A stretch of 64,000 nucleotides of DNA, taken from the NCBI GenBank assembly GCA_042408215.1, contig JAYFMW010000030.1, positions 160,001 to 224,000 on the forward strand, in the 5' to 3' direction. The DNA is from Microcoleus sp. (GTDB lineage Bacteria > Cyanobacteriota > Cyanobacteriia > Cyanobacteriales > Microcoleaceae). The position numbers were made by a program, and so were the translations under genes. Each line of letters starts with the position of its first letter. Position 1 is the stretch's first letter. This document shows, one piece after another, positions 8,366 through 41,141 of this stretch. The notes beneath the pieces are model-generated. The model had not been told where the DNA came from and did no database searches. It saw nothing but the letters and a program-made list of their open reading frames with translations.

Positions 8366-9223
8366 ATGAAAACTGGATTGTTTGTGGGATTGGCGACTTG
8401 GGATTTGGTTTATTTGGCGCAGCAGCCTCCGGGGGAAAATCAGAAAGTTGTTGCTTCTGATTGTACCATTGCTGCGGGTGGGCCGGCGGCGAATGCTGCG
8501 GTGACTTTTAGCTATTTGGGGAATGGGGCGATATGGGCTGGGGTTTTGGGCACTCACGCGATCGCCCAATTGATTCGGACAGACTTAGCAGAGTATAATG
8601 TGAGGATAATCGATTTAGCGCCAGGGCGATCGGACCCGCCACCAGTTTCTTCGATTATTGTAACTCAAGGAACCGGAGGGCGATCGGTAATTTCCATCAA
8701 TGCTACGAAATCCCAGGTTGACCCTCAAGCAATTAACCAAGATATTTTAACATCAGTTAATATTGTACTGGTTGACGGACACCAAATCCCAGCCAGCCAA
8801 GAAATTGCTCAAATTGCCAAGTCCAAGAACATTCCAATTGTACTCGATGGCGGCAGTTGGAAACCAGGATTAGAAGAAATATTGCCTTTTATAGAATGGG
8901 CTGTGTGCTCCGATAATTTTCATCCACCCAATTGCGACAACTCTGAAGAAGTGTTTGCTTATCTATCAGCAGCCGGAATTCCAAACATCGCCATCACTCG
9001 CGGCGAAAAACCAATTTTATACCTCAACAATGGCAAACATGGCAGTATAGAAATCCCTCAAATTCAAGCCAAAGACACTTTAGGCGCAGGCGATATTTTC
9101 CACGGGGCTTTCTGTCACTATATTATGGAAAATAACTTTACAGATAGTCTCACCGCAGCCACAAAAATCGCTTCCGATTCCTGCAAAAAATTCGGAACCC
9201 GCCGCTGGATGAAAAATGGTTAA
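8366..9223 (+). CDS. PfkB-family carbohydrate kinase
   Basis: GGPAANAA and DTLGAGDIFHG motifs. Confidence 0.9.
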   Translation: MKTGLFVGLATWDLVYLAQQPPGENQKVVASDCTIAAGGPAANAAVTFSYLGNGAIWAGVLGTHAIAQLIRTDLAEYNVRIIDLAPGRSDPPPVSSIIVTQGTGGRSVISINATKSQVDPQAINQDILTSVNIVLVDGHQIPASQEIAQIAKSKNIPIVLDGGSWKPGLEEILPFIEWAVCSDNFHPPNCDNSEEVFAYLSAAGIPNIAITRGEKPILYLNNGKHGSIEIPQIQAKDTLGAGDIFHGAFCHYIMENNFTDSLTAATKIASDSCKKFGTRRWMKNG

Positions 9224-9475
9224 TTTTAAATTAAAATTAACCAAAGTATCCGGGAAAAACCAATCCAAACTATAAAAATTCAACAAGCAAGTCAAAATCA
9301 TTATAGCAATCATTGTAGCATTTGTGAATTTCTCTGTTTCCTCTTCCTCTGCGCCCTCTGCGCTCTCTGCGGTTCACAAAAAAAAATATACATATTCACA
9401 AATCAAACAGGATTGCTATATTAGTAAGACAACCTCAAACCAAACCAAACAGTCCCAAAACAACATACCCGAATC

Positions 9476-10600
9476 ATGTCTGACACCCAACCCCTAACCA
9501 TCACCCTTCCCCCTTTGCGGATTACCCTGACAGAACAACAACAGGTTAATCTAGAATGGCTGACACAAAACCTACCAAATCTACTTACTCAAAGCAAAAA
9601 AGAAGTCCCCGACAACATGAAACAGTGGGTAGCAGCCAACAAACTATTAAATAAACCCGACGCAGAAATCATTCAAATCCTCATAAGTACCGGCATAGAT
9701 GCGGAAACAGCAACAGCAGAAGTTAGGGAAATATCATCTCACCCCTACTTCCAAGCAGGTACTCAGTACGTCCAGTTATTGCAGAAATTAGAATCGCAAC
9801 TTAGCATTAACAATCAATTAGCCTCCCTCTCTGCAAAATTCGGGACAATCGAACGGAAAAGCAGCCTGTCACGAGAGTATTTTTTAGAAAATTACTACGC
9901 CAAAAATACTCCGGTAATTATTACCAATATTATGCACAACTGGAAAGCATTGCAGTTGTGGACACCGGAGTATTTGCAGCAAACATATGGCGATGCAGAG
10001 GTGCAAATTCAAGCCAACCGCAACTCAGACCCGGACTACGAAATTAAGGTAGAAAATCACAAAAAAACTGTTTTGTTCCGCGAATATGTAGAGATGGTGG
10101 TCAACAGCGGCCCTAGCAATGATTACTACATGGTTGCTAACAACCAGACTCTGGAAAGAGAAGAATTTAAACCTCTATTCAACGACATTGAAATTTTTCC
10201 AGAATACCTAAATCCTACCGATACAAGTGGCAGAGTTTTCTTTTGGTTCGGCCCGAAAGGCACGATTACGCCACTACACCATGACCCAGTTAATTTAATT
10301 TTAGCTCAAGTTTCTGGTCGCAAACTAATTAAATTGATTTGTCCCCAGCAAACTCCTCTGCTTTATAATCATGTCGGGGTTTTTAGTAAGGTTGATGGCG
10401 AAAATCCCGACTATGAAAAGTATCCTCTTTACAGAGATGCGAAAATCATTGAAGTGATTTTGGAACCGGGAGAAGCTATCTTTATTCCTGTGGGTTGGTG
10501 GCACCATGTAAAATCATTAGAGGTGAGTATTTCAGTCTCGTTTACTAATTTTGTGTTTCCCAATTATTATGAATGGAAATATCCTCATATTAATTGGTAA
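9476..10600 (+). CDS. JmjC/cupin-8 domain 2OG-Fe(II) oxygenase
   Basis: FWFGPKGTITPLHHD...LEPGEAIFIPVGWWHHV (HxD...H triad). Confidence 0.88.
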   Translation: MSDTQPLTITLPPLRITLTEQQQVNLEWLTQNLPNLLTQSKKEVPDNMKQWVAANKLLNKPDAEIIQILISTGIDAETATAEVREISSHPYFQAGTQYVQLLQKLESQLSINNQLASLSAKFGTIERKSSLSREYFLENYYAKNTPVIITNIMHNWKALQLWTPEYLQQTYGDAEVQIQANRNSDPDYEIKVENHKKTVLFREYVEMVVNSGPSNDYYMVANNQTLEREEFKPLFNDIEIFPEYLNPTDTSGRVFFWFGPKGTITPLHHDPVNLILAQVSGRKLIKLICPQQTPLLYNHVGVFSKVDGENPDYEKYPLYRDAKIIEVILEPGEAIFIPVGWWHHVKSLEVSISVSFTNFVFPNYYEWKYPHINW

Positions 10601-25013: not shown

Positions 25014-26331
25014 ATGGCTATGAAAAAAATCCGTTTTATTGACTTATTCTCAGGAATAGGCGGCCTGAGACTAGGATTTGAAGAAGCCGCTCGCGCCTTA
25101 AATATTGAAACAGAATGCGTCTTAAGCAGCGAAATTAATACCGACGCTCAATTAGTTTACCATAAAAATTTTGGCGACACACCTTTAGGCGACATCCGAC
25201 TAATTGACCAACTCCCAGAACATCAAATTTTACTAGCCGGATTTCCTTGTCAGTCTTTCTCCTATGCTGGTAAAAAAGCTGGCTTTGGAGACACCAGAGG
25301 CACGCTATTTTTTGAGATTGTGCGGCTGATTGATACTTTTAAACCTCAAGCATTTATTTTTGAGAATGTGCGGGGACTTGTCTCCCACGACTGCGGACAA
25401 ACCCTAGAAACTATAAAAGGCGAAATGACCAGCCGAGGTTATAGCTTCGATTATTTTGTACTCAACAGCTCTAACTTTAGTTTACCTCAGAACCGCGTCC
25501 GAGTTTACTTAGTCGGAGTTTTAAATGCGGCGCCACAATTTCGGTTAATTTCAGACTTAGGGCCAAAAGATTCCCATGCTTCTAACCATCAACAACTATC
25601 CTTATTTTATCCCTTAAGTAAACCTGTCACAGTTGCAGATATTTTAGAAGATAATCCAGATTCAAAATATGATTGTTCGCCAGCTTTTGTCAAGGCTTTG
25701 CAACAAATCGTTAACAATGATCTAAATCGCTTGCACGGAATGCGGCTAATAGACTATCGCGGCGGCAATTCGATTCATTCTTGGGAATTGGGTTTGCGGG
25801 GCGAGTGCAGTTTAGCAGAAATTGAATTGATGAATCTTTTTATCTTGAAAAGGCGCAATCAAGAATTTGGACATCACCAAGATGGGAAGCTTTTAACTAA
25901 AGAGCAAATAGCTATTTTTTTGCAAGCATTCGCAGCTTGATGAAATTCTGGATTCGCTGGTTAGAAAAAAGTACCTACAGCGGAATAATGAGCTTTACAA
26001 ACCTGTCTCTGGCAACTTTTCTTTTGAAGTGTACAAGTTCCTAGATCCGCACAAGATATCGATCGCTGTTGTTGCTAGCGATGCGAATAGATTAGGAGTT
26101 TATCATCATCACCGAGTTCGCAGGATTACTCCCCGCGAAGCTGCAAGGTTGCAGGGTTTTCCAGATAGTTTTGTTTTGGACGATCGCGACGATCGAGCTT
26201 ATCATCAATTGGGCAACAGTGTGAGTGTAAATGTTGTCAAAGCTGTTGCTTTAGAAGTGATAGCCGAAGGAAGTTCGGCAACGGATTCTGTAACGGATTT
26301 AACGGATGTAACGGAGGTCAATCGATTTTAG
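25014..26331 (+). pseudogene. DNA (cytosine-5)-methyltransferase, likely CGATCG-specific (M.Ssp6803I-like), split by a +1 frameshift in a T7 run (25915-25921), possibly a sequencing error
   Basis: FSGIGG, AGFPCQ, ENV and QNRVRV in the first ORF; RLQGFP and LGNSV in the second. Removing one T gives continuous ...QIAIFCKHSQLDEILDSLVRKKYL...EVYKFLDP. Confidence 0.75.
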
Positions 26332-28396: not shown

Positions 28397-29941
28397 AAGA
28401 AATACCCTGAAAACCCTGTGACTTTAGTCCAGGGATGAAAGGGCGTGGCAGGATTTATCCTGCCTGTTCGTAAGTTTCAATATAACATAATGTTTAACCG
28501 TCCCCGGACAAATTCTTCTAGCAATTGAGACCAAGGTAAAGATTTGTTTAGGATTAATTAACTTGTTAATTCACGATATATACTAAACCTAGTGTCACAA
28601 TAGCCAGTAAGTTAAATGTACGCAGTACAAAAAGATGTTTGGCATTTAAAAGGACTCGACAAAACCATTGTCGAACAACTCTTGAGATGGTCAAATAATC
28701 TGTTTAATGTCGGAACTTACGAAAGTCGGCAACAATACTTTAAAAACCAAAGCGTAGTTAAATATCCAGATTTATATAAAATAGCCAAGACCAACGAAAA
28801 TTACGGGTTGCTATACTCTCAAGTTGCCCAACAATCTCTTAAATCTGTCGCAGAATCTTTTACTTCTTTCCGAGCCTTAGAGAAGTTGGCAAACAAAGGA
28901 GCAATTAATCAAAAACCGAGACTACCAAGGTACAGAACCAAAGGGGGAATGTACCCCGTTTCCTATCCCGGTCAAGCCTTAAAGGTAATTGGAAATAAAA
29001 TCAGATTACCCCTGGGGAAAAAAGGAAAAGAATACTTTGGGAAAGATGCGATTTGGGTGCCGCTACCTGAACGTATCAAGAATTGCCAGATCAAAGAACT
29101 CAGGTTAATCCCTAGAAATGGTGCGGTATGGGTCGAATATGTCCACGAATCCCTGACTGAACAAGCCCCTAGTTGCAGCTTGGAAGTGACAGGGGTTCTG
29201 GGCATCGATCACGGCATCAATAACTGGTTAACTTGTGTCTCTAGCGGTAAACCTTTCATCATTGATGGACGTAGACTCAAGTCTTGGAACCAATGGTTTA
29301 ACAAAGAAAAAGCGAGAGTTCAATCAGAACACGCAATACATAAATTACCCAAAGGTTTCTCGTCAAAAAGATTGCAGCAGTTGTCGGAAATTCGCACTAG
29401 AAGGATGAGAGATGCTGTCAACAAAGCAGTTAGAAGTATTATAGATTATTGCGAAGATCACCAAATCAATGTCTTAGTCTTTGGCTGGAACAAGGCACAG
29501 AAGCAAGAGGTTAATATGGGGGTCGTGACTAATCAGAATTTTGTCCAAATACCCACTGCTAAAGTCAAAGATAGACTCCAACAAGAATGCGACTTAAGGG
29601 GATGGCGATTTGTAGAACAAGATGAATCTTACACCTCAAAATCAAGTTTTTTAGACCGAGACATTTTGCCAGTAAAAGTCTGTGAAAAACCTGACAATTG
29701 GCAACCATCGGGTAAAAGAATCAAAAGAGGATTGTACTGTTCTAGCGCTGGGTTGTTAATCAATGCAGATGTTAACGGTGCAGCTAATATCATTAGAAAG
29801 TCAAAAGTAGCCATAGACTCAATTCTTGAGCGAGTGGGTAGGGGGTTTCTGACTAACCCTTTGAGAATTAAGCTTTGGGCGGATTCATCCCCCAAAGTTT
29901 GTCCTTAAGAATCCCCGTGTCTTTAGACCGGGGAGTGTCAA
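28397..29941 (+). mobile_element. IS200/IS605-family (IS1341-type, tnpB-only) element
   Basis: Left hairpin CCCTGTGACTTTAGTCCAGGG, right end GAAT-CCCCGTGTCTTTAGACCGGGG-AGTGTCAA; preceded by TTAT. Confidence 0.8.
28616..29908 (+). CDS. tnpB: RNA-guided endonuclease TnpB
   Basis: YSQVAQQ, GIDHG, QNFVQIP, ESYTSKSSFLD and NADVNGAANI motifs. Confidence 0.92.
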   Translation: MYAVQKDVWHLKGLDKTIVEQLLRWSNNLFNVGTYESRQQYFKNQSVVKYPDLYKIAKTNENYGLLYSQVAQQSLKSVAESFTSFRALEKLANKGAINQKPRLPRYRTKGGMYPVSYPGQALKVIGNKIRLPLGKKGKEYFGKDAIWVPLPERIKNCQIKELRLIPRNGAVWVEYVHESLTEQAPSCSLEVTGVLGIDHGINNWLTCVSSGKPFIIDGRRLKSWNQWFNKEKARVQSEHAIHKLPKGFSSKRLQQLSEIRTRRMRDAVNKAVRSIIDYCEDHQINVLVFGWNKAQKQEVNMGVVTNQNFVQIPTAKVKDRLQQECDLRGWRFVEQDESYTSKSSFLDRDILPVKVCEKPDNWQPSGKRIKRGLYCSSAGLLINADVNGAANIIRKSKVAIDSILERVGRGFLTNPLRIKLWADSSPKVCP

Positions 29942-30256: not shown

Positions 30257-31634
30257 TTAATCTTGACAACAATTCTTGACATATTCCCGAAAAACAGAAG
30301 ACAATTTAAACAAGATTTTATCCTCTTTTATCTTCCTTACTAAATACCTTTGTTGTAAAGATTGTAAACCATTAATTAAATCCATTGATGATAAATCTAA
30401 ACTCTGTCTTAAATATTCTCTGGATACAGGCAGATCGAACTTACTTAATTCTAAAACAAGTTGCTGTTCTCTAGGTGATATTCTGTTAAATAACTGGTGA
30501 AAATTATATTGCATATCCTTGGTAATAATCAAGCTCTTATCGGCTAAGAACTCAGCAACATCCCCATCAAAAATCTTTTTAATTGAAATAGCAATACTTT
30601 TTAAATAAACTGGATTACCCTCATATAAATTAATTAACTTTAACCAACTATCCTCATCTTTCAATCCTGTACCTTTCAGAATTGCCACATCATCTAAACC
30701 TGACAACTCTAAACATTTGATCGGATATAATTCCTCATCTAAACACTCCATTTCCGCACATTGCTCTTGACTAATTAAAATCACATTACTTTGATGCTCA
30801 GTTCCTGTAATCATGGTAAAAAAGTTTTGGTAATCTTGATATTCAGATTTATATTGTCCAGCAAATTGAGCCGGTAGCAAAGATATTATGAACATCATCA
30901 AGAATAATCAAACATTTTTTGTCTCTCAAAACATCTAATAATTGTTTTAACTTATCATCTATAGTTTCTTTAGCTTCTTGTTTACAAGCATTCAATAAAT
31001 CATTAACCAATAACTCTAAAGGTTTAGGAAATTTTAGGCTTCTCCAGATAATTACTTCAAATTCTTGTAGATTGAGATCGACAAACCTTTTCACTAGAGT
31101 AGTTTTACCAATTCCACTCAATCCCAATACTGAGGTTAAACGAGTATTTTGATTTAAGATCCAATTAGAAATAGTTTTAAGTTGAGATTCTCTTGCGTAA
31201 AAATTGATGATTTGAGGAGCTATGGTTAAATCGTGATAATGTGATGTAGATTGAGTATTTATATCACTTTGCTTGAGCTTATTTATTGGGCTGAGTTGAT
31301 TTGATATTTGTGTAGGACAAAAATTATTATTACTGCCATTTATATGGTAAATATTATTGGAATTGTCAGATGATTCAATATATACTCTTTCTAAGCTAGA
31401 ACGAAAATTAGTTTTTTTTATATCCTCACCCAATATTTCAGATAAAAGTTGCCATAATTCAGCACCTACATCACCTACATGATTTTTAGTGACATAGCAC
31501 TTCTGGGCGATATCATCATAGGTTTGTCTTTCCCAAGTCCCCTCAACTACAGCCCTTTGAACATCATCTAGGTGCTTTCCAGTTCGTTCAACCACTAGGC
31601 GATCGACAAATTGTAACAGTTGGTTTACATTCAT
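30257..31634 (-). pseudogene. N-terminal HTH plus NB-ARC/STAND ATPase regulator with a single +1 frameshift near 30870 (possibly a sequencing error)
   Basis: N-terminal TGKHLDDVQ..TY..IA HTH, Walker A GLSGIGKTT, Walker B LIILDD, YEGNP. Removing one base gives ...IFATGQFAGQYKSEY. Confidence 0.75.
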
Positions 31635-31865
31635 AAAAACTATACAGGGCAAAGGTTTCATCCATTATAACTTAACCGGAATCCTATTTTTTCCGATCTT
31701 TTCCGATTTTTTGCTTAATATTGTGTAACAAAACTCCCGTTTAAATCCGAGTTTTTCCGATCGCACTCCCATATTTAATTTTGCTATGCTCTTAAAACAA
31801 ACGAGCACAGGCTTAAAAAGTCGTGCTTTTTCCGTTGTTGATGATTTTTTAGGAGCATTACTAAA

Positions 31866-32075
31866 ATGACACAAGCAAAAGAAAGATTACTCACTGATAC
31901 TCACTCACAAAATGATTGTATTGTTCTTGACCTTGAAGAATTTGACTTAAGTGACTTAGATGCACTCAAAAATACAGCACTTGGTAACGTTTTGGAAAAA
32001 AATTTTTCAAAATCCAATGGCTTCATCTGCATCATACCAGACATACTAGCCATTCTTCTCATCGGTGCAGTTTGA
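31866..32075 (+). CDS. FxsA-like RiPP (triceptide) precursor peptide; C-terminus apparently scrambled by single-base insertions
   Basis: AGGAG RBS at ~31851. Leader VLDLEEFDLSDLDALKNTALGNVLEK resembles FxsA leaders. HTRHTSHSSH is encoded in the +2 frame at 32033-32062. Lies directly before the radical SAM gene. Confidence 0.75.
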   Translation: MTQAKERLLTDTHSQNDCIVLDLEEFDLSDLDALKNTALGNVLEKNFSKSNGFICIIPDILAILLIGAV

Positions 32076-32122
32076 TCAAAGTGCTCTGGGGGTAGTCAAT
32101 AACTGGCTATGTACAGAATACT

Positions 32123-32168
32123 AATTAAATGGCTACTAATTACCTCAAGCAATAGTAGCCATTTAATT
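32123..32168 (+). terminator. 16-bp perfect stem-loop between precursor and maturase genes
   Basis: AATTAAATGGCTACTA (32123-32138) / TAGTAGCCATTTAATT (32153-32168). Confidence 0.65.
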
Positions 32169-32216
32169 CTGGCATACATAATTTAAGTTTTGAACATATC
32201 ATAGATTTATGGCTGA

Positions 32217-33374
32217 GTGTCCACACCCTTACATTCGCTGGTTTGTAAAGTAGTATCCCGTTGCAACCTTAACTGTGATTATTGCTATATGTATCAGCAT
32301 AGCGATCAAAGTTGGCAACAGCAACCTTTGAAAATGTCTGAAGCAACTATTACACAATTAGGTAAGAGAATTGATGAACATACCACCAAACACCAAGTAT
32401 CAGAATTTTCTGTAATCATGCACGGTGGAGAACCTCTCTTAGCAGGGATTAGACTATCTCAAAAATTTTCAAGAGATTATTACAGAAAGATGTGCCTAAT
32501 GTTAAACTAGAGATTTGGCATGCAAACTAATGGTGTGTTGTTAAACGATGAAATCTTAGATTTCTGTGTTTCTAATAATACAACAATAGGTCTAAGTATG
32601 GATGGCGATCGAGAAGCTAACGATTTGCATCGCTTAGATCATCAAGGTAAATCTGCATTTTCCAGTTTGGAAAAGACTCTTCAATTATTAAGTAGCGATC
32701 GAGGACGGAAAATATGGGCAGGTTTTTTATGTGTGATCGATCTACATAACGATCCTGAAGCTGTATATTCTTATTTGTCACAATATAATCCTCCTTCGAT
32801 TGATTTTTTGTTACCTTTAAATCACCATGACTTAAGACCTCTTGGTAAAGAAAAATCTCTTGATGTAACTCCTTATGCAGACTGGCTACTTAAGATTTTT
32901 GATATTTGGTATCATCAAAAACCTCAAACAATCAAAATTAGGAAATTCAAGGAAATTATTTTACTAATGCTAGGATTGCAAGGAAATTCAGAAGAATGGG
33001 GTTTAAACCCTGTTGATTTTGCCGTTATTGAAACCAACGGTGATATTGAAGCCGTTGATTCTTTGAAAGTTACTTATCCCGAAGCTACCAAGTTAGGAAT
33101 GGATATATTTACCCACAGTTTTGATGAGATTTTTGACTCCCCAAAGGTTATTCAACGTCAAGAAAAGTGGCAATATTTGAGCGAAACTTGTCAAGAATGT
33201 AACTTAGTTAAAGTTTGTGGTGGTGGTTATCTTCCCCATAGATATTCTAGCGAAAATTACTTTCATAATCCATCAGTGTATTGTTCCGATCTCAAAAAAC
33301 TGATTACTACAATTCGCCGCCAAGTAATTGAAGATATGCAAACAATCAAGAAGAAAAAACTTCCTGCTGTTTAG
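32217..33374 (+). CDS. fxsB: FxsB-family radical SAM/SPASM cyclophane-forming peptide maturase; broken by ~3 single-base insertions at ~32445-32515
   Basis: KVVSRCNLNCDYCY (CX3CX2C), HGGEPLLAG, MQTNG, SMDG, DFLLP, TPYADWL, ETNGDIEAVDSLK, CQECNLVKVCGGG..HRY..NPSVYCSDL. The two ORF halves are in the same frame. Confidence 0.85.
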
Positions 33375-33408: not shown

Positions 33409-35253
33409 ATGAAGATCGAACTGGATATTAATACCGTCAAAAACTTAGTTTCTCCTACGGGGGCTTCCGATCCATTAGTTAAAGTAATTTACTTAGCAGA
33501 ATATCATAGAACTTTGCTAAGGTTAAGTAATCTCTCTCAAAAACTGCAATCAGAATCACCTAAGTTAATTGATGGTTTAACCAACTTTTCTCAATCTTTT
33601 GAGTTGGTAAAATCTTTTTCTAAAAATGCCCAAAGAAAGATTTTACGCCATCCATCTTTTAGCGTTTGGTTAGATACAGCTTGGCAATTAGTTAACCGAA
33701 AAGCTCATATTCTGTTTCCAGAAATGCACATTAAGTTTCATCTGGAATCTTTCCCAAAGTTTCTTTTAGCAATGGCAAAATATGACAATATAGAAAATTT
33801 AGAGTGTTTTTTATATACCGATCATGCTGGAATTATTGCCATACCCGGAACCGGAATTTATTTACAGCATCCTCAACATCTTGCCTTTCAAAGATTGCGT
33901 TTTGTTACCACAACTAACGCTGGTTTTAATATTTATACAGATGGAAATCAAAATTTAGAGATGATTCAAAATGAAATACCTCATCTCAATAACGGCATTG
34001 AATTAAATGCTTTTGATAGCGATTTACGTTTAGGTGGTCGCTACGATTTGAATTTTGAGGAATTAACACCAACTTCCACTATTAAATGGTTATCTAGTTT
34101 AGAGGAAGCTTGGTTTTGGATAGAGAGTTGTTCAACTTTATTAGCAAGTGAAATTTTCATGGGAGTACAATCTTTAGTTCCAGTACATTCTCATGCTATA
34201 GATGTTCATAGAAGTCAGACATTTCGAGAAATACCCGGACTTTTGATTTTATCTTGGATGTCAGATACCTCAGTAATAGTAGAAGCTTTAGTCCATGAAT
34301 ATCATCATCATAAACTTAATGCTTTATTAAATTTAGAGCCAATCATTGTAGAAGGTAGTCCAGAAGAAATTTATTATTCTCCTTGGCGTGACGATCCCCG
34401 ACCTCTCAGTGGTATTTTGCAGGGAATTTATGTCTTTCAAGCTGTTTTAGAATTGTGGCATAAAATTCTGAAAACAGATATACCTGTTTTACAAGAAAAG
34501 CGTTTGCAACAAAAAGTATATTCTGCTAAGAAGCAACTGCTAACTGCACTTAAAGTTTTAACAACTAATGCAGGATTTTCTTTGATTGGTCAAGCATTGA
34601 TTGAAGCAATAGAAGAAAATATCGATCGAGTTGAACCTGAAATTTCTCAAATAGAACAACAACAAATTGACCTGAGATTAAAAGAACATCAGCAGAAATG
34701 GGAAGCGGCAAATCCTAATTTAGTCGGCACAAAAATCTTGCCAATTAAAGTATCTGTTGATTTGGCAAAAAATGACAACAATACAATATTGAATCAATCA
34801 TGTCAATGGCTAGGAATTACACCAAATATTGATTTACGTCCCTTAACTTATCTGAGACAACCATTCGATCCAATTCTTGAGACTTTAGTAGCTATTTACC
34901 ACGATCGAGGCTTAAAAGAATTAGAAGACATATTAAAAGGAACTCAGTTGGGAGATTCAATTTTATTAGATTTAATATGTGGACATACAGCTTATCTTAA
35001 TCAAGACTATCAGAAAGCAGCAGAATTTTATCAAAGTTGTATTGAGCAATATCCTAATGCTCCTTATTTTTGGCAATGTTTTATGTTTGCATTGAGACAT
35101 TTAAACCTGTTAGAAGATTACGAATTAATCTTGCTTAACATAGATAAAATTGTTGCTAATAGTTTAGAAATCAAAAAAATAATCAGGCAAAACTCAAACC
35201 CTGAAAATAAAGTTCAAATGATGGTTAAATTAGTTAAAACATTAGTTAATTAA
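33409..35253 (+). CDS. aKG-HExxH-type peptide-modifying protein with C-terminal TPR-like repeat
   Basis: EALVHEYHHHKL and YYSPWRDDPRPLSGILQG; TPR-like YQKAAEFYQSCIEQYPN. Confidence 0.85.
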   Translation: MKIELDINTVKNLVSPTGASDPLVKVIYLAEYHRTLLRLSNLSQKLQSESPKLIDGLTNFSQSFELVKSFSKNAQRKILRHPSFSVWLDTAWQLVNRKAHILFPEMHIKFHLESFPKFLLAMAKYDNIENLECFLYTDHAGIIAIPGTGIYLQHPQHLAFQRLRFVTTTNAGFNIYTDGNQNLEMIQNEIPHLNNGIELNAFDSDLRLGGRYDLNFEELTPTSTIKWLSSLEEAWFWIESCSTLLASEIFMGVQSLVPVHSHAIDVHRSQTFREIPGLLILSWMSDTSVIVEALVHEYHHHKLNALLNLEPIIVEGSPEEIYYSPWRDDPRPLSGILQGIYVFQAVLELWHKILKTDIPVLQEKRLQQKVYSAKKQLLTALKVLTTNAGFSLIGQALIEAIEENIDRVEPEISQIEQQQIDLRLKEHQQKWEAANPNLVGTKILPIKVSVDLAKNDNNTILNQSCQWLGITPNIDLRPLTYLRQPFDPILETLVAIYHDRGLKELEDILKGTQLGDSILLDLICGHTAYLNQDYQKAAEFYQSCIEQYPNAPYFWQCFMFALRHLNLLEDYELILLNIDKIVANSLEIKKIIRQNSNPENKVQMMVKLVKTLVN

Positions 35254-35260
35254 AACTTTT

Positions 35261-36232
35261 ATGAATACAGCAAGTTTGAGCAAACACTTAGTAAATAGTC
35301 CTTTTAGCAAATACTTTGAGATATTTCCTGATGGGGGACAATTACCTTCTTTTATTGCTACTGTCAAAGGGTTAAAATCGGCAACAGATTTATGGGTGCA
35401 AAAGCCCAAATGGAAATCTTTTTGTGAATTAGCTCAATATTTTGGCTTGTATTATTATGTAGATGCTTATTTTTATCGAGACATGGGAAAATTAAACAGT
35501 TTACCTCAAGAGTTATTTACTACAACTAAAGCTGTTTTTAGTAAAGAGTTTTCTGAGGAAGCTCATGTTTTTATTGCTAAGTCACAAGATGCTTTAACAA
35601 ATGCAATTGCTTCAGGATGGTATCCTTTAGTTGTCGGTCAAAGAGTAATTGAAAAACATTTACCAGACCATTATACTTTTGGAAAAGCACTAGGTTATCC
35701 TCAATGTTGTCTTGATTTTTTTCAAAAGCGAAATCATTGGAATTTTTATAATAATTACTATGAAACTTATCGCAATACGATTAACAAACCTACATATTTA
35801 TCAAATGGATTGTTACGTCATACTCCATTTTCACTAATTCCCCACATACCTTGTTCTTTTGATTGTCAAGCATCTATCCAATATGCTCAAAAAAATCGCC
35901 TTCTAATTAATGAGGAGAGCCAAGAATATTTAGAAGAAATAGAACATCATTTGCAAACACCAATTTTATGTCTGTCAGAACTTAAGATTTATCGTTTTGA
36001 AGGTAAAATTGTTGCTGAAAATATAGTCAACTATCAATCTGTAGAGGGAATATATCCTACATCACAAAATGATTGGCTATATCAAATACTTGTTAAAGGT
36101 GATACTTGTATTATTGAGGGGAATATTATTAGAGTCTACCGAGACAATTCTCAGATCAGTGCTTATTTTGCTAGAGGTGATAAACATGAAGTAGAGATTC
36201 CATTTTTGATGGATTTTTCCCAAGAGACTTAA
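35261..36232 (+). CDS. Cys-rich protein of unknown function (DUF483-like)
   Basis: GKALGYPQCC and PHIPCSFDC motifs; 7 nt after the HExxH gene. Confidence 0.55.
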   Translation: MNTASLSKHLVNSPFSKYFEIFPDGGQLPSFIATVKGLKSATDLWVQKPKWKSFCELAQYFGLYYYVDAYFYRDMGKLNSLPQELFTTTKAVFSKEFSEEAHVFIAKSQDALTNAIASGWYPLVVGQRVIEKHLPDHYTFGKALGYPQCCLDFFQKRNHWNFYNNYYETYRNTINKPTYLSNGLLRHTPFSLIPHIPCSFDCQASIQYAQKNRLLINEESQEYLEEIEHHLQTPILCLSELKIYRFEGKIVAENIVNYQSVEGIYPTSQNDWLYQILVKGDTCIIEGNIIRVYRDNSQISAYFARGDKHEVEIPFLMDFSQET

Positions 36233-36318: not shown

Positions 36319-37119
36319 ATGAATCTTGTAGAAAGAATTATTAACAATATTCAAGAAAAAGACTTACAATATATTCTTGATTTAGAAAAAGAGATTTTGA
36401 ATTCTAAATTAACTTTAGATCGAAATTTGTTAATAGATGTGGAGGATCAAAAAACCGCCCAACGATATTTCTATCTTTATACACTACCTATGTTAGAAGG
36501 ACTAGGATTATTAGAGCAACAGGAAAATGCTATTTTTTGGGGGACTGTGCAATTATGTTTAGATTTACATCTCAGATATGTGGATTACATCATAGATGAT
36601 GATAAAATAGACATAAGCAGATTATTAATTACGCAAAAATCTTATGATTATTTATTCCGATCGCAAATGCTACTAAATCAAAAAGGCTATTTGTGGGGTT
36701 CCGATCAAATGGCTATTTATACCCAATATTTTGACTACGAGAAGGAGGCAAATACCGAGCAATTTCATGATTTTGGTAGCCTATGGAGACGAGTATCTCC
36801 TCTATTCATTGTTTCTGGAAGTTACTTAAAATTATCTGGTAAAATAGTTGATTTTGATTTTTATTACAAACGATATATAAGTTCTTGGCTGCTCAAAGCA
36901 GATTGCTCGGATATTATTAAGGATATTAATAAACAAAAAACCCCGATTACCAACTTAGTATATAATTACGATGCTCAAATTGATAAAAATGTCATGTTAA
37001 TGGCCAACACAGTTAACTCTATTGATGTCAAACTCGATCGAGGTTTAACTCAAATAAAAAACCACATATCTAACAAACTTCCAATATGGGCAATAATTAT
37101 TGAAAGTTTGTTGTCTTAA
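36319..37119 (+). CDS. Hypothetical helical protein with isoprenoid-synthase-like Asp-rich motifs
   Basis: DYIIDDD and ADCSDIIKD motifs; GAGGA RBS. Confidence 0.5.
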   Translation: MNLVERIINNIQEKDLQYILDLEKEILNSKLTLDRNLLIDVEDQKTAQRYFYLYTLPMLEGLGLLEQQENAIFWGTVQLCLDLHLRYVDYIIDDDKIDISRLLITQKSYDYLFRSQMLLNQKGYLWGSDQMAIYTQYFDYEKEANTEQFHDFGSLWRRVSPLFIVSGSYLKLSGKIVDFDFYYKRYISSWLLKADCSDIIKDINKQKTPITNLVYNYDAQIDKNVMLMANTVNSIDVKLDRGLTQIKNHISNKLPIWAIIIESLLS

Positions 37120-39786: not shown

Positions 39787-41141
39787 TTGACACTCCTCGG
39801 CCTGAAGGCACTCTTGATTCTTGGTTCAGTCAGTCGGCTTGCCCGTTGATGTTACCACCAACGAGTAGAGGTCGTTCTGTCCCCAAGCGTTAATTTCGGT
39901 GTGCCCCACCGTATTTAGATTGATTCCTGTTTGTTTTAATCCTTTTGCTAGAATATTCAGAGCTGCATTGTGGTCACGGTCTAATACCGCCCCACATCCG
40001 CAAATATGGGTTCTAGTTGATAGCGTTTTCTTAACTAGATTCCCACAACTTGAACAATCTTGGGAAGTGTACTGAGGAGCAACAGCAACTACTGTTTTAC
40101 CGTACACTTTCCCCAAGTATTGCAACCATTGAGCAAACTGCGACCAAGCTGCATCACTAATTGATTTAGCAAGCTTATGGTTTTTCACCATATTCCGCAC
40201 CTGAAGGTTTTCGTAGGCTACGAAATCGTTAGATTTCACTACGCACAACGCCATCTTAATGGCGTTGTCTTTGCGTTGCCTACTGACTTTTAGGTGTTTC
40301 CTTCCTAACTTATTGATTGCTTTTTTGCGATTACTAGAACCTTTCTTTTTCCGAGAAACTCGTTTCTGTAACCGCTTTAAAGCTTTTTCACTTTTACGGA
40401 GATGTCGAGGATTAGAAACTGTTTCTCCGGTGCTATCAGTGTAGAAATGGTTTAAACCCACATCCAACCCTACGGCTTTGCCAGTAGGAATTGTTTCCTC
40501 TGTCCGTTCCACGTTGATACAAAACTGAGCGTAGTAGCCATCGGCACGACGAACTATCCTGATTCGCTTAATTTCACCAGGTGCATAGAAGTGCAAATCT
40601 CGACTACCAAGTAGCCTAAATGTTCCAGCGGCAAAATCATCCGTGAAAGTTAAACATCTTTTGTCGGCAGAAAGCTTCCAACCTGAAGTCTTATATTCTA
40701 CAGAACGGGTGTGTTTCTTAAACTGCGGGTAGCCCTTTTTTCCTGGCTTCTTAGTTTTACAATTTGAGAAAAAACGTTGGATAGCAAAAATGGCGCGTTC
40801 AGCAGAAGCTTGACGTGCCATCGAGTTAAGTTTTCCTGCCCATTCAAACTATGAGGCCATGATGGCGCATTGTTTGTATAGATCAACTAACTTAACTACT
40901 TGATTGTCGATCCAATATCTAAGAGTTTTGTTTCGGACAAATTGCGCTGTGCGGATCATTTCGTCGATAATCCGATATTGCTGCGATTTGCCTTTTAATT
41001 TAAACTCTAGTACAATCATGCTATTATTCTATCGTTTTTGCAGAGCATTGTATTCGCAAAGTGCATATATTTAAGAATTGTTTACACTTTATAGAAATTA
41101 AAGCCGTCCTAGAAGGACGGGGCTTTAGACCCAAATTTTTG
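39787..41141 (-). mobile_element. IS200/IS605-family tnpB-only element
   Basis: Minus strand: TTAC | CAAAAATTTGGGTCT-AAAG-CCCCGTCCTTCTAGGACGG at the left end; ...GAGTGTCAA at the right end. Confidence 0.85.
39826..41019 (-). pseudogene. tnpB: TnpB with an in-frame TAG at 40849-40851
   Basis: MIVLEFKLKGK...CAIMAS*FEWAGKLNSMARQASAER; GLDVG, AYENL, TSQDCSSCG, CGCG and DRDHNAALNI motifs. Confidence 0.85.

Follow-up and report, generated by a model that had tools for sequence, protein, structure and literature searches.

A probable five-gene peptide-modification cassette in Microcoleus, its precursor core apparently obscured by spurious single-base insertions

Genes and features of the locus

In the window (the whole stretch of DNA that was analyzed, 64,000 nucleotides), a short precursor peptide gene is followed on the same strand by genes for an FxsB-type radical SAM/SPASM enzyme (here the maturase), an HExxH protein, a DUF483 protein, and a 266-aa protein with an isoprenoid-synthase fold (Table 1). 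We consider it probable that these form a five-gene peptide-modification cassette and that spurious single-base insertions affect the precursor core and the 5' part of the maturase gene in this assembly. The stem-loop between the precursor and maturase genes could possibly stabilize the precursor message. Two TnpB-like transposon genes, recognized by eye, flank the cassette (28616-29908 on the plus strand and 39826-41019 on the minus strand), and the second of them is split.

Table 1. Features of the cassette and its surroundings (positions in the window)
Feature	Position	Strand	Remarks
Divergent NB-ARC protein	30257..31661	-	One extra base near 30870 splits the gene here
Precursor peptide gene	31866..32095	+	74 aa in relatives; five extra bases here, near 32003-32007, 32030-32032, 32063, 32068, and 32086
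Acidic leader, annotated frame	31866..32002	+	89-98% identity in 10 same-genus genomes
Motifs 1-3 (HTR, HTS, HSS) and His of motif 4	32033..32062	+	+2 frame; register from homologs
Motif 5 (Phe-x-x) and spacer	32071..32085	+	+1 frame; supported by relatives
Terminal Trp-Gly and TAG stop	32087..32095	+	+2 frame; Trp end as in homologs
16-bp stem-loop between precursor and maturase	32123..32168	+	-18.3 kcal/mol as RNA, no shuffle control
FxsB-type radical SAM/SPASM cyclophane synthase	32209..33374	+	Split by five extra bases (~32221 twice, 32445, 32485-32490, 32510); single ORF of 386-393 aa in relatives
alphaKG-HExxH beta-hydroxylase domain protein	33409..35253	+	614 aa; HEYHH at residue 296; weak C-terminal TPR
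DUF483 protein	35261..36232	+	323 aa
Isoprenoid-synthase-fold protein (class I), unnamed family	36319..37119	+	266 aa; candidate peptide (Trp) prenyltransferase

A hydrophobic tail closes the annotated precursor ORF (31866-32075, 69 aa), and this frameshifted ORF is stored unchanged in the protein collection (P0096). The original prediction placed a hidden His-x-x core in the other frames, and both of its 10-mers read as it gave them (IFQNPMASSA at 32002-32031 in the +1 frame and HTRHTSHSSH at 32033-32062 in the +2 frame). It joined them by removing three single bases, which gave three tandem motifs and an end at the TGA at 32073-32075. The hidden core held up, but its end did not: His repeats are present in the homologs described below, yet none of the 25 intact ones ends in the proposed way, and two more extra bases (near 32068 and 32086) carry the gene to the TAG at 32093-32095. 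The three bases themselves (near 32003, 32030, and 32063) are extra relative to all six 74-aa-type relatives among the 10 aligned and relative to contigs from public runs, but the gene holds five in all. The first of them lies in the T run at 32003-32007 instead of the A run at 31996-32002, since a relative keeps seven A's and Asn precedes Phe across the precursor family. Removal of five bases reduces the 230 bases to 225, the length of the gene in the 74-aa relatives. As read from the corrected sequence, the core shows five tandem aromatic-x-x motifs (His, His, His, His, and Phe), the fourth starting with the His at 32060 and the fifth with the Phe at 32071, followed by a final Trp-Gly. Four His residues at i, i+3, i+6, and i+9 occur 97 times in the 14.7 million six-frame positions of the genome, and about 0.0015 such spacings are expected by chance in 230 bp read in three frames; a spacing this rare indicates that the His-repeat core is not a chance occurrence. 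No Pfam domain was found on the 74-aa peptide, and a comparison of the precursor profile with solved chains gave nothing below an E value of 0.26.

We looked for the precursor in other genomes by its leader, its DNA, and its profile. The leader search covered 79 same-genus genomes, including the window's own, and found 10 further carriers (10/78), in all of which the precursor is intact (71 aa in four and 74 aa in six). At the DNA level, four relatives among the 61 genomes searched match across the whole 1.7 kb at 86-94% identity. The profile search returned 27 proteins among 145 candidates, of which 25 are intact and have 23 distinct cores; the other two, P0095 and the shifted ORF of the window itself, were excluded from the homolog counts. 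Of 144 family genomes, 12 gave a match with the precursor profile. Named members of the family come from Microcoleus, Microcystis, and a Trichodesmium MAG. The cores were anchored on S-[HY]-S-S-[HY], which makes the anchor positions circular and leaves three other register positions informative; these are aromatic in 18/23, 23/23, and 23/23 distinct cores, with Phe in 10, Tyr in 7, and His in 6 at the last of them, and motif 1 is missing from five. Across the nine off-register positions, aromatic residues fill 1 of 207 cells; because all these counts come from kin sequences, they describe a pattern and are not a statistical test. Moreover, 22 of the 23 cores end in Trp or Trp-x, the Trp lying outside the cyclophane register. 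P0100 has a similar core without the Trp.

The register in homologs and the FxsB-type neighbor agree with the proposal that the His-x-x core follows the aromatic-x-x pattern of cyclophane-synthase substrates, and the lack of an FxSxx tail was correctly foreseen, the cores ending in Trp or Trp-x. The FxsA-type leader survives as a weak likeness: of five precursors from relatives, model TIGR04268 matched one, in its leader and with 13.4 bits where the cutoff is 28, and with this score and no C-terminal FxSxx, membership in the FxsA precursor family was rejected. The earlier interpretation as a whole was therefore supported in part. What sets the locus apart, its conserved terminal Trp and its tailoring genes, escaped it.

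The gene order precursor, maturase, HExxH-TPR, DUF483, and 266-aa gene is complete, at differing genomic sites, in five of the seven same-genus relatives for which long stretches were available. One of the remaining two has a deletion over the end of the HExxH gene and DUF483, and in the other a histidine-phosphatase-family gene replaces DUF483 (G019, L029:5702-6220, minus strand). The full set is also found in loci L034 and L041. An Anaerolineae locus (L044) has a Trp-less precursor, maturase, HExxH, DUF483, and a phosphatase-family gene after DUF483 (8921-9505, plus strand), in a genome without a 266-aa homolog; the phosphatase-family gene is possibly a further tailoring gene or an alternative one. 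The locus sets from the leader search and from the other searches overlap, and their counts were not summed. The NB-ARC gene lies beside the cassette in all seven same-genus relatives, as one ORF of 447-460 aa in six of them, and its product is possibly a regulator. In more distant records, from Proteobacteria and Bacteroidota (L046, L047, L048, and L049), FxsB/YhhB-like maturases occur with HExxH genes and one or two DUF483-like genes, and His/Ser/Thr-rich precursors were seen at L046:138-386 and L048:2537-2752.

Extra bases over the precursor and maturase genes

Compared with all six 74-aa-type relatives, the window has 12 extra bases at 11 places within 32003-32510 (near 32003, 32030, 32063, 32068, 32086, 32111, 32204, 32221 [two], 32445, 32485, and 32510) and one missing base (near 32140). 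Five of the extra bases fall in the precursor gene and seven further downstream, and the radical SAM gene is broken too, into two ORFs (32217-32510 and 32520-33374) that align in succession to a single model. Contigs from four public runs, which come from strains other than the window's (0.55-0.59 of words shared), lack the bases at 32003, 32029, 32063, 32083, and 32111 where they cover them, among the matches listed. The bases near 32003, 32030, and 32063 are absent from contigs of runs X1, X2, and X5, while run X7 spans only the first; the base near 32083-32086 is extra both in the alignment with relatives and among the listed run-contig matches. As a control, we matched 16 genes to ORFs of relatives. 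Three had a net shift, namely NB-ARC, the maturase, and a single gene among the 11 from outside the cassette. Over 3.6 kb, the three genes 3' of the maturase contain no indel. Elsewhere in the window, a DNA cytosine-methyltransferase-like gene, recognized by eye from its motifs (25014-26331, plus strand), is apparently split into two ORFs.

Insertion-heavy patches are typical of a poorly polished long-read consensus, and a patch this dense points to a local consensus or sequencing error; we regard the extra bases as very probably such an artifact. Were they real, the precursor and maturase would be pseudogenes in the window's strain and the locus another case of cassette decay, a reading that we find improbable. 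Natural decay does occur: G003 and G030 carry a deletion spanning the end of HExxH and DUF483, and G006 (L139:9161-11564) has lost precursor, maturase, and HExxH while keeping a fused NB-ARC/DUF483 remnant and an intact 266-aa gene. Furthermore, the first frameshift recurs in P0095, a different allele, within this T run, and among the public runs none from the same strain was found. Against decay stand the ratio of 12 extra bases to one missing base in about 510 bp, the position of most of them outside homopolymer runs, the lack of nonsense changes wherever the frame agrees with that of relatives, and the intactness of the three downstream genes. The artifact reading is adopted in what follows.

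Enzyme families and the predicted pathway

The maturases of intact relatives score 429.8 and 423.5 bits with the FxsB model TIGR04269, above its cutoff of 370, compared with 111 and 304 for the two pieces in the window. A maturase above the cyclophane-synthase cutoff, found next to a leader-core precursor with aromatic-x-x motifs, argues for a triceptide-type pathway (a three-residue cyclophane RiPP), with the cross-link in the product predicted. The best solved relative is ChlB (E value = 4.6e-84). Membership in the YhhB family was rejected, the scores with NF041707 being 394.6 and 392.6 against a cutoff of 445. In the enzymes described in PMC11499958, His C2 is linked to C-beta on HTK, HAA, and HNR motifs, and the residue just after the DFxLP motif sets specificity, Asp going with a basic residue 3 and His with a small one; eight of the nine enzymes that we examined have Leu there.

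The HExxH protein scores 109.9 with TIGR04267 (cutoff, 40), retains the HExxH motif, and matches ChlH (E value = 1.4e-11), which is described as hydroxylating His and Asp on a cyclized peptide (PMC12636437). Some HExxH enzymes are reported to cleave the backbone instead or additionally. The N-terminal half of the DUF483 protein is most similar in fold to an uncharacterized protein (Z = 9.4, rmsd = 3.0, 109 aligned), and it also matches a cysteine methyltransferase of the SAM-dependent fold at a middling score (Z = 6.5, rmsd = 3.8, 117 aligned), so that a methyltransferase-like fold is only a lead. Full-length DUF483 homologs in other genera were not found in 401 phylum genomes beyond one weak match, nor were any found in plasmids, and among the literature matches listed for DUF483 no title concerns RiPPs. 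Viral contigs often carry DUF483-like genes, with 83 matches of which 80 were retained (L058-L137). None of these 80 loci has a radical SAM, HExxH, or 266-aa gene at an E value of 1e-5, which indicates that DUF483 has no general link to this pathway. In another cyanobacterium (L052:1282-3307, minus strand), a DUF483-like gene stands behind a radical SAM gene of another kind and thereby provides a second example of such a pairing.

The 266-aa protein and its alignment gave nothing significant against solved structures, Pfam, and NCBIfam, and none of 35 family members matched the polyprenyl-synthase Pfam model at an E value of 0.1; 38 homologs were found among 1.84 billion representatives. Its predicted model (pLDDT = 92) is closest to trans-prenyltransferases (Z = 17.4, rmsd = 3.5, 254 aligned), the top fold matches being chain-elongating synthases, and the top Foldseek rows are all prenyl synthases, none at an E value of 0.001 or lower. 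Asp89/Asp93 and Asp195/Asp202 are invariant in 35 sequences. In the first Asp-rich motif (DDxxD), the first and last Asp (D89 and D93, which match Mg ligands in StheQ as described in bioRxiv 2026.08.29.745113) are kept and the second is replaced, the second motif reads x-Asp-Cys-x-Asp-x-x-x-Asp, and a WRRVSP motif is specific to the family. Ala, Ser, Gly, or His precedes D195, and no Gln is conserved one turn earlier; because the Asn-Asp of the ComQ-type pseudo-SARM (NDxxx) and its upstream Gln are absent, we did not file the protein as a ComQ-family member.

The 266-aa gene is linked to the cassette. It is present in nine of the 10 leader-carrying genus genomes and in two without a leader match (one at a contig edge and one a deletion remnant), and it lies downstream of DUF483 in four of five metagenome loci that are too short to show a precursor. 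In one metagenome locus (L055:401-1516, plus strand), a RelA/SpoT-domain gene stands between DUF483 and the isoprenoid-synthase-fold gene. P0019 (686 aa) is a natural fusion of an HExxH hydroxylase homolog (E value = 4e-66) with an isoprenoid-synthase-fold domain; a search for longer fused forms of the 266-aa protein returned none and was insensitive, since P0019 exists. According to the review PMC13290415, the characterized trans-IDS-like peptide prenyltransferases all target Trp, and the known enzymes of this fold are described as acting on Trp at or near the C terminus (PMC10853753; bioRxiv 2026.08.29.745113; PMC13290415). The adjacent peptide here likewise has Trp at or next to its C terminus in 22 of 23 cores, the ComQ/PalQ-type arrangement, and in the Anaerolineae cassette both the terminal Trp and the 266-aa gene are absent. 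This link rests on related cyanobacteria and on one negative genome of unstated completeness; a search of 401 genomes of that genome's phylum, run without a positive control, found no 266-aa homolog. When the 266-aa protein and the precursor core were modeled as a complex, the score was 0.00, which counts neither for nor against binding.

We infer every chemical step of the pathway from characterized systems. The FxsB-type enzyme would bind the acidic leader of the precursor and, by analogy with HaaB, YhhB, HtkB, ChlB, and MicB, would join the ring of motif residue 1 (His C2, or Phe/Tyr) to the C-beta of residue 3, so that as many as five three-residue cyclophanes would lie next to one another. 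The HExxH enzyme would next beta-hydroxylate residues of the cyclized core, as ChlH/YhhC do. The isoprenoid-synthase-fold protein may add a prenyl chain to the terminal Trp, working like ComQ, PalQ, and StheQ; this is the activity that we find most plausible for it, at a little less than an even call. DUF483 would make a further modification, methylation being our best guess and an unlikely one. Leader removal and export would need genes elsewhere, since no protease or exporter lies within the cassette. Such a pathway would yield a rigid peptide, possibly with a lipid attached, that has candidate roles in antagonism, signaling, or metal binding. That every step applies, so that five contiguous His/Tyr/Phe cyclophanes form a rigid rod that is hydroxylated, prenylated on Trp by a motif-distinct new family, and modified by DUF483, seems to us somewhat doubtful.

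What is new is that a triceptide-type maturase shares its cassette with an HExxH hydroxylase, with a DUF483 protein, and with an isoprenoid-synthase-fold protein of an unnamed family. In the literature searched, we found neither this cassette nor a prenylated triceptide described, and the supplements of Sugiyama 2022, Morishita 2024, and Ruel 2025 may list the cluster among ~3900 putative pathways. If the full reading is true, it would combine cyclophane and lipidation chemistry in one RiPP, a lipidated five-ring triceptide of mat-forming freshwater cyanobacteria, and would give first functions to two uncharacterized enzyme families: a prenyltransferase family for a cyclized peptide and a first role for DUF483. 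It would also add a Leu variant of the cyclophane-synthase specificity site. An assembly problem very probably concealed the substrate of this uncharacterized pathway, and the intact copies in relatives make the pathway testable by coexpression.

Alternatives and known systems

Within a triceptide-type pathway, the activity of the 266-aa protein and the reach of the maturase can each be read differently. The 266-aa protein might prenylate His or another residue, make or cyclize a prenyl diphosphate, or only bind the peptide, a substantial if lesser possibility: its motifs are unlike those of ComQ/StheQ, its best fold matches are prenyl-diphosphate synthases and MoeN5, and its gene is intact in G006 without a precursor. 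The conservation of the terminal Trp outside the cyclophane register, the fusion to a peptide-modifying HExxH domain, and the fixed place of the gene in the cassette speak for Trp instead. As for the maturase, it could modify only some motifs or oxidize Ser-containing ones instead of cross-linking them, given Leu in place of the Asp or His of HtkB/HaaB at the residue-3 position and given that Ser overoxidation is a reported side reaction (PMC12186529). We consider this rather unlikely, as MicB is described as a single enzyme that cross-links YSK, HAS, and FTK in one peptide (PMC12912966) and MscB as linking Phe to Ser (PMC11002830). A different kind of system altogether would be an HXS-like anti-phage system (HxsA-D) whose His-x-Ser repeats bind incoming DNA. 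HXS is described as having five such repeats and radical SAM maturation (PMC13128918), the cores here are rich in His-x-Ser with weak HxsA matches (13.8-19.1 bits), and the cassette is patchy (10/78 genomes), sits at differing sites, and has an NB-ARC neighbor. The HxsA cutoffs of 55-122 are not approached, however, the HxsB model reaches 75 bits against 370, no match in the genome exceeds the HxsB cutoff, and HXS membership was rejected on these scores. Motifs 4 and 5 often have Phe/Tyr first and a residue other than Ser third, and PADLOC matches only a generic radical SAM and NTPase. Moreover, the maturase family differs, there is one radical SAM enzyme and not two, and the short 74-aa peptide has no effector or Pfam domain, whereas HxsA has a signal peptide and a peptidoglycan-binding domain. 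These differences make an HXS-like system extremely unlikely, and we retain the triceptide-type pathway.

Among known triceptide systems, ChlA/ChlBH and YhhA/B/C resemble the cassette in having the closest solved maturase (ChlB), a matching hydroxylase (ChlH), and His/Tyr-x-x motifs, and in both, hydroxylation is described as following cyclization. The cassette differs from them in its five uninterrupted Ser-rich motifs, its separate HExxH-TPR protein, and its two extra tailoring genes; its maturases score below the YhhB cutoff and carry Leu where ChlB and HtkB have Asp. With FxsA/FxsB it shares a maturase above the FxsB cutoff and a weakly FxsA-like acidic leader, but it has a multimotif core and an off-register terminal Trp in place of the FxSxx-COOH tail, and its precursor stays below the FxsA cutoff. 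HtkA has an HTK-type motif like the first one here, and HaaB and HtkB are His-modifying FxsB relatives. The 266-aa protein resembles ComQ, PalQ, StheQ, and ChrPC, as these are described, in its isoprenoid-synthase fold, the Asp pair of a first motif whose second Asp is replaced, and an adjacent short peptide with Trp last or second to last. It departs from them in a second motif without their Asn/Gln, in its family-specific WRRVSP, and in its partner, which is a cyclophane precursor here and a quorum-sensing or NHLP peptide in the described systems.
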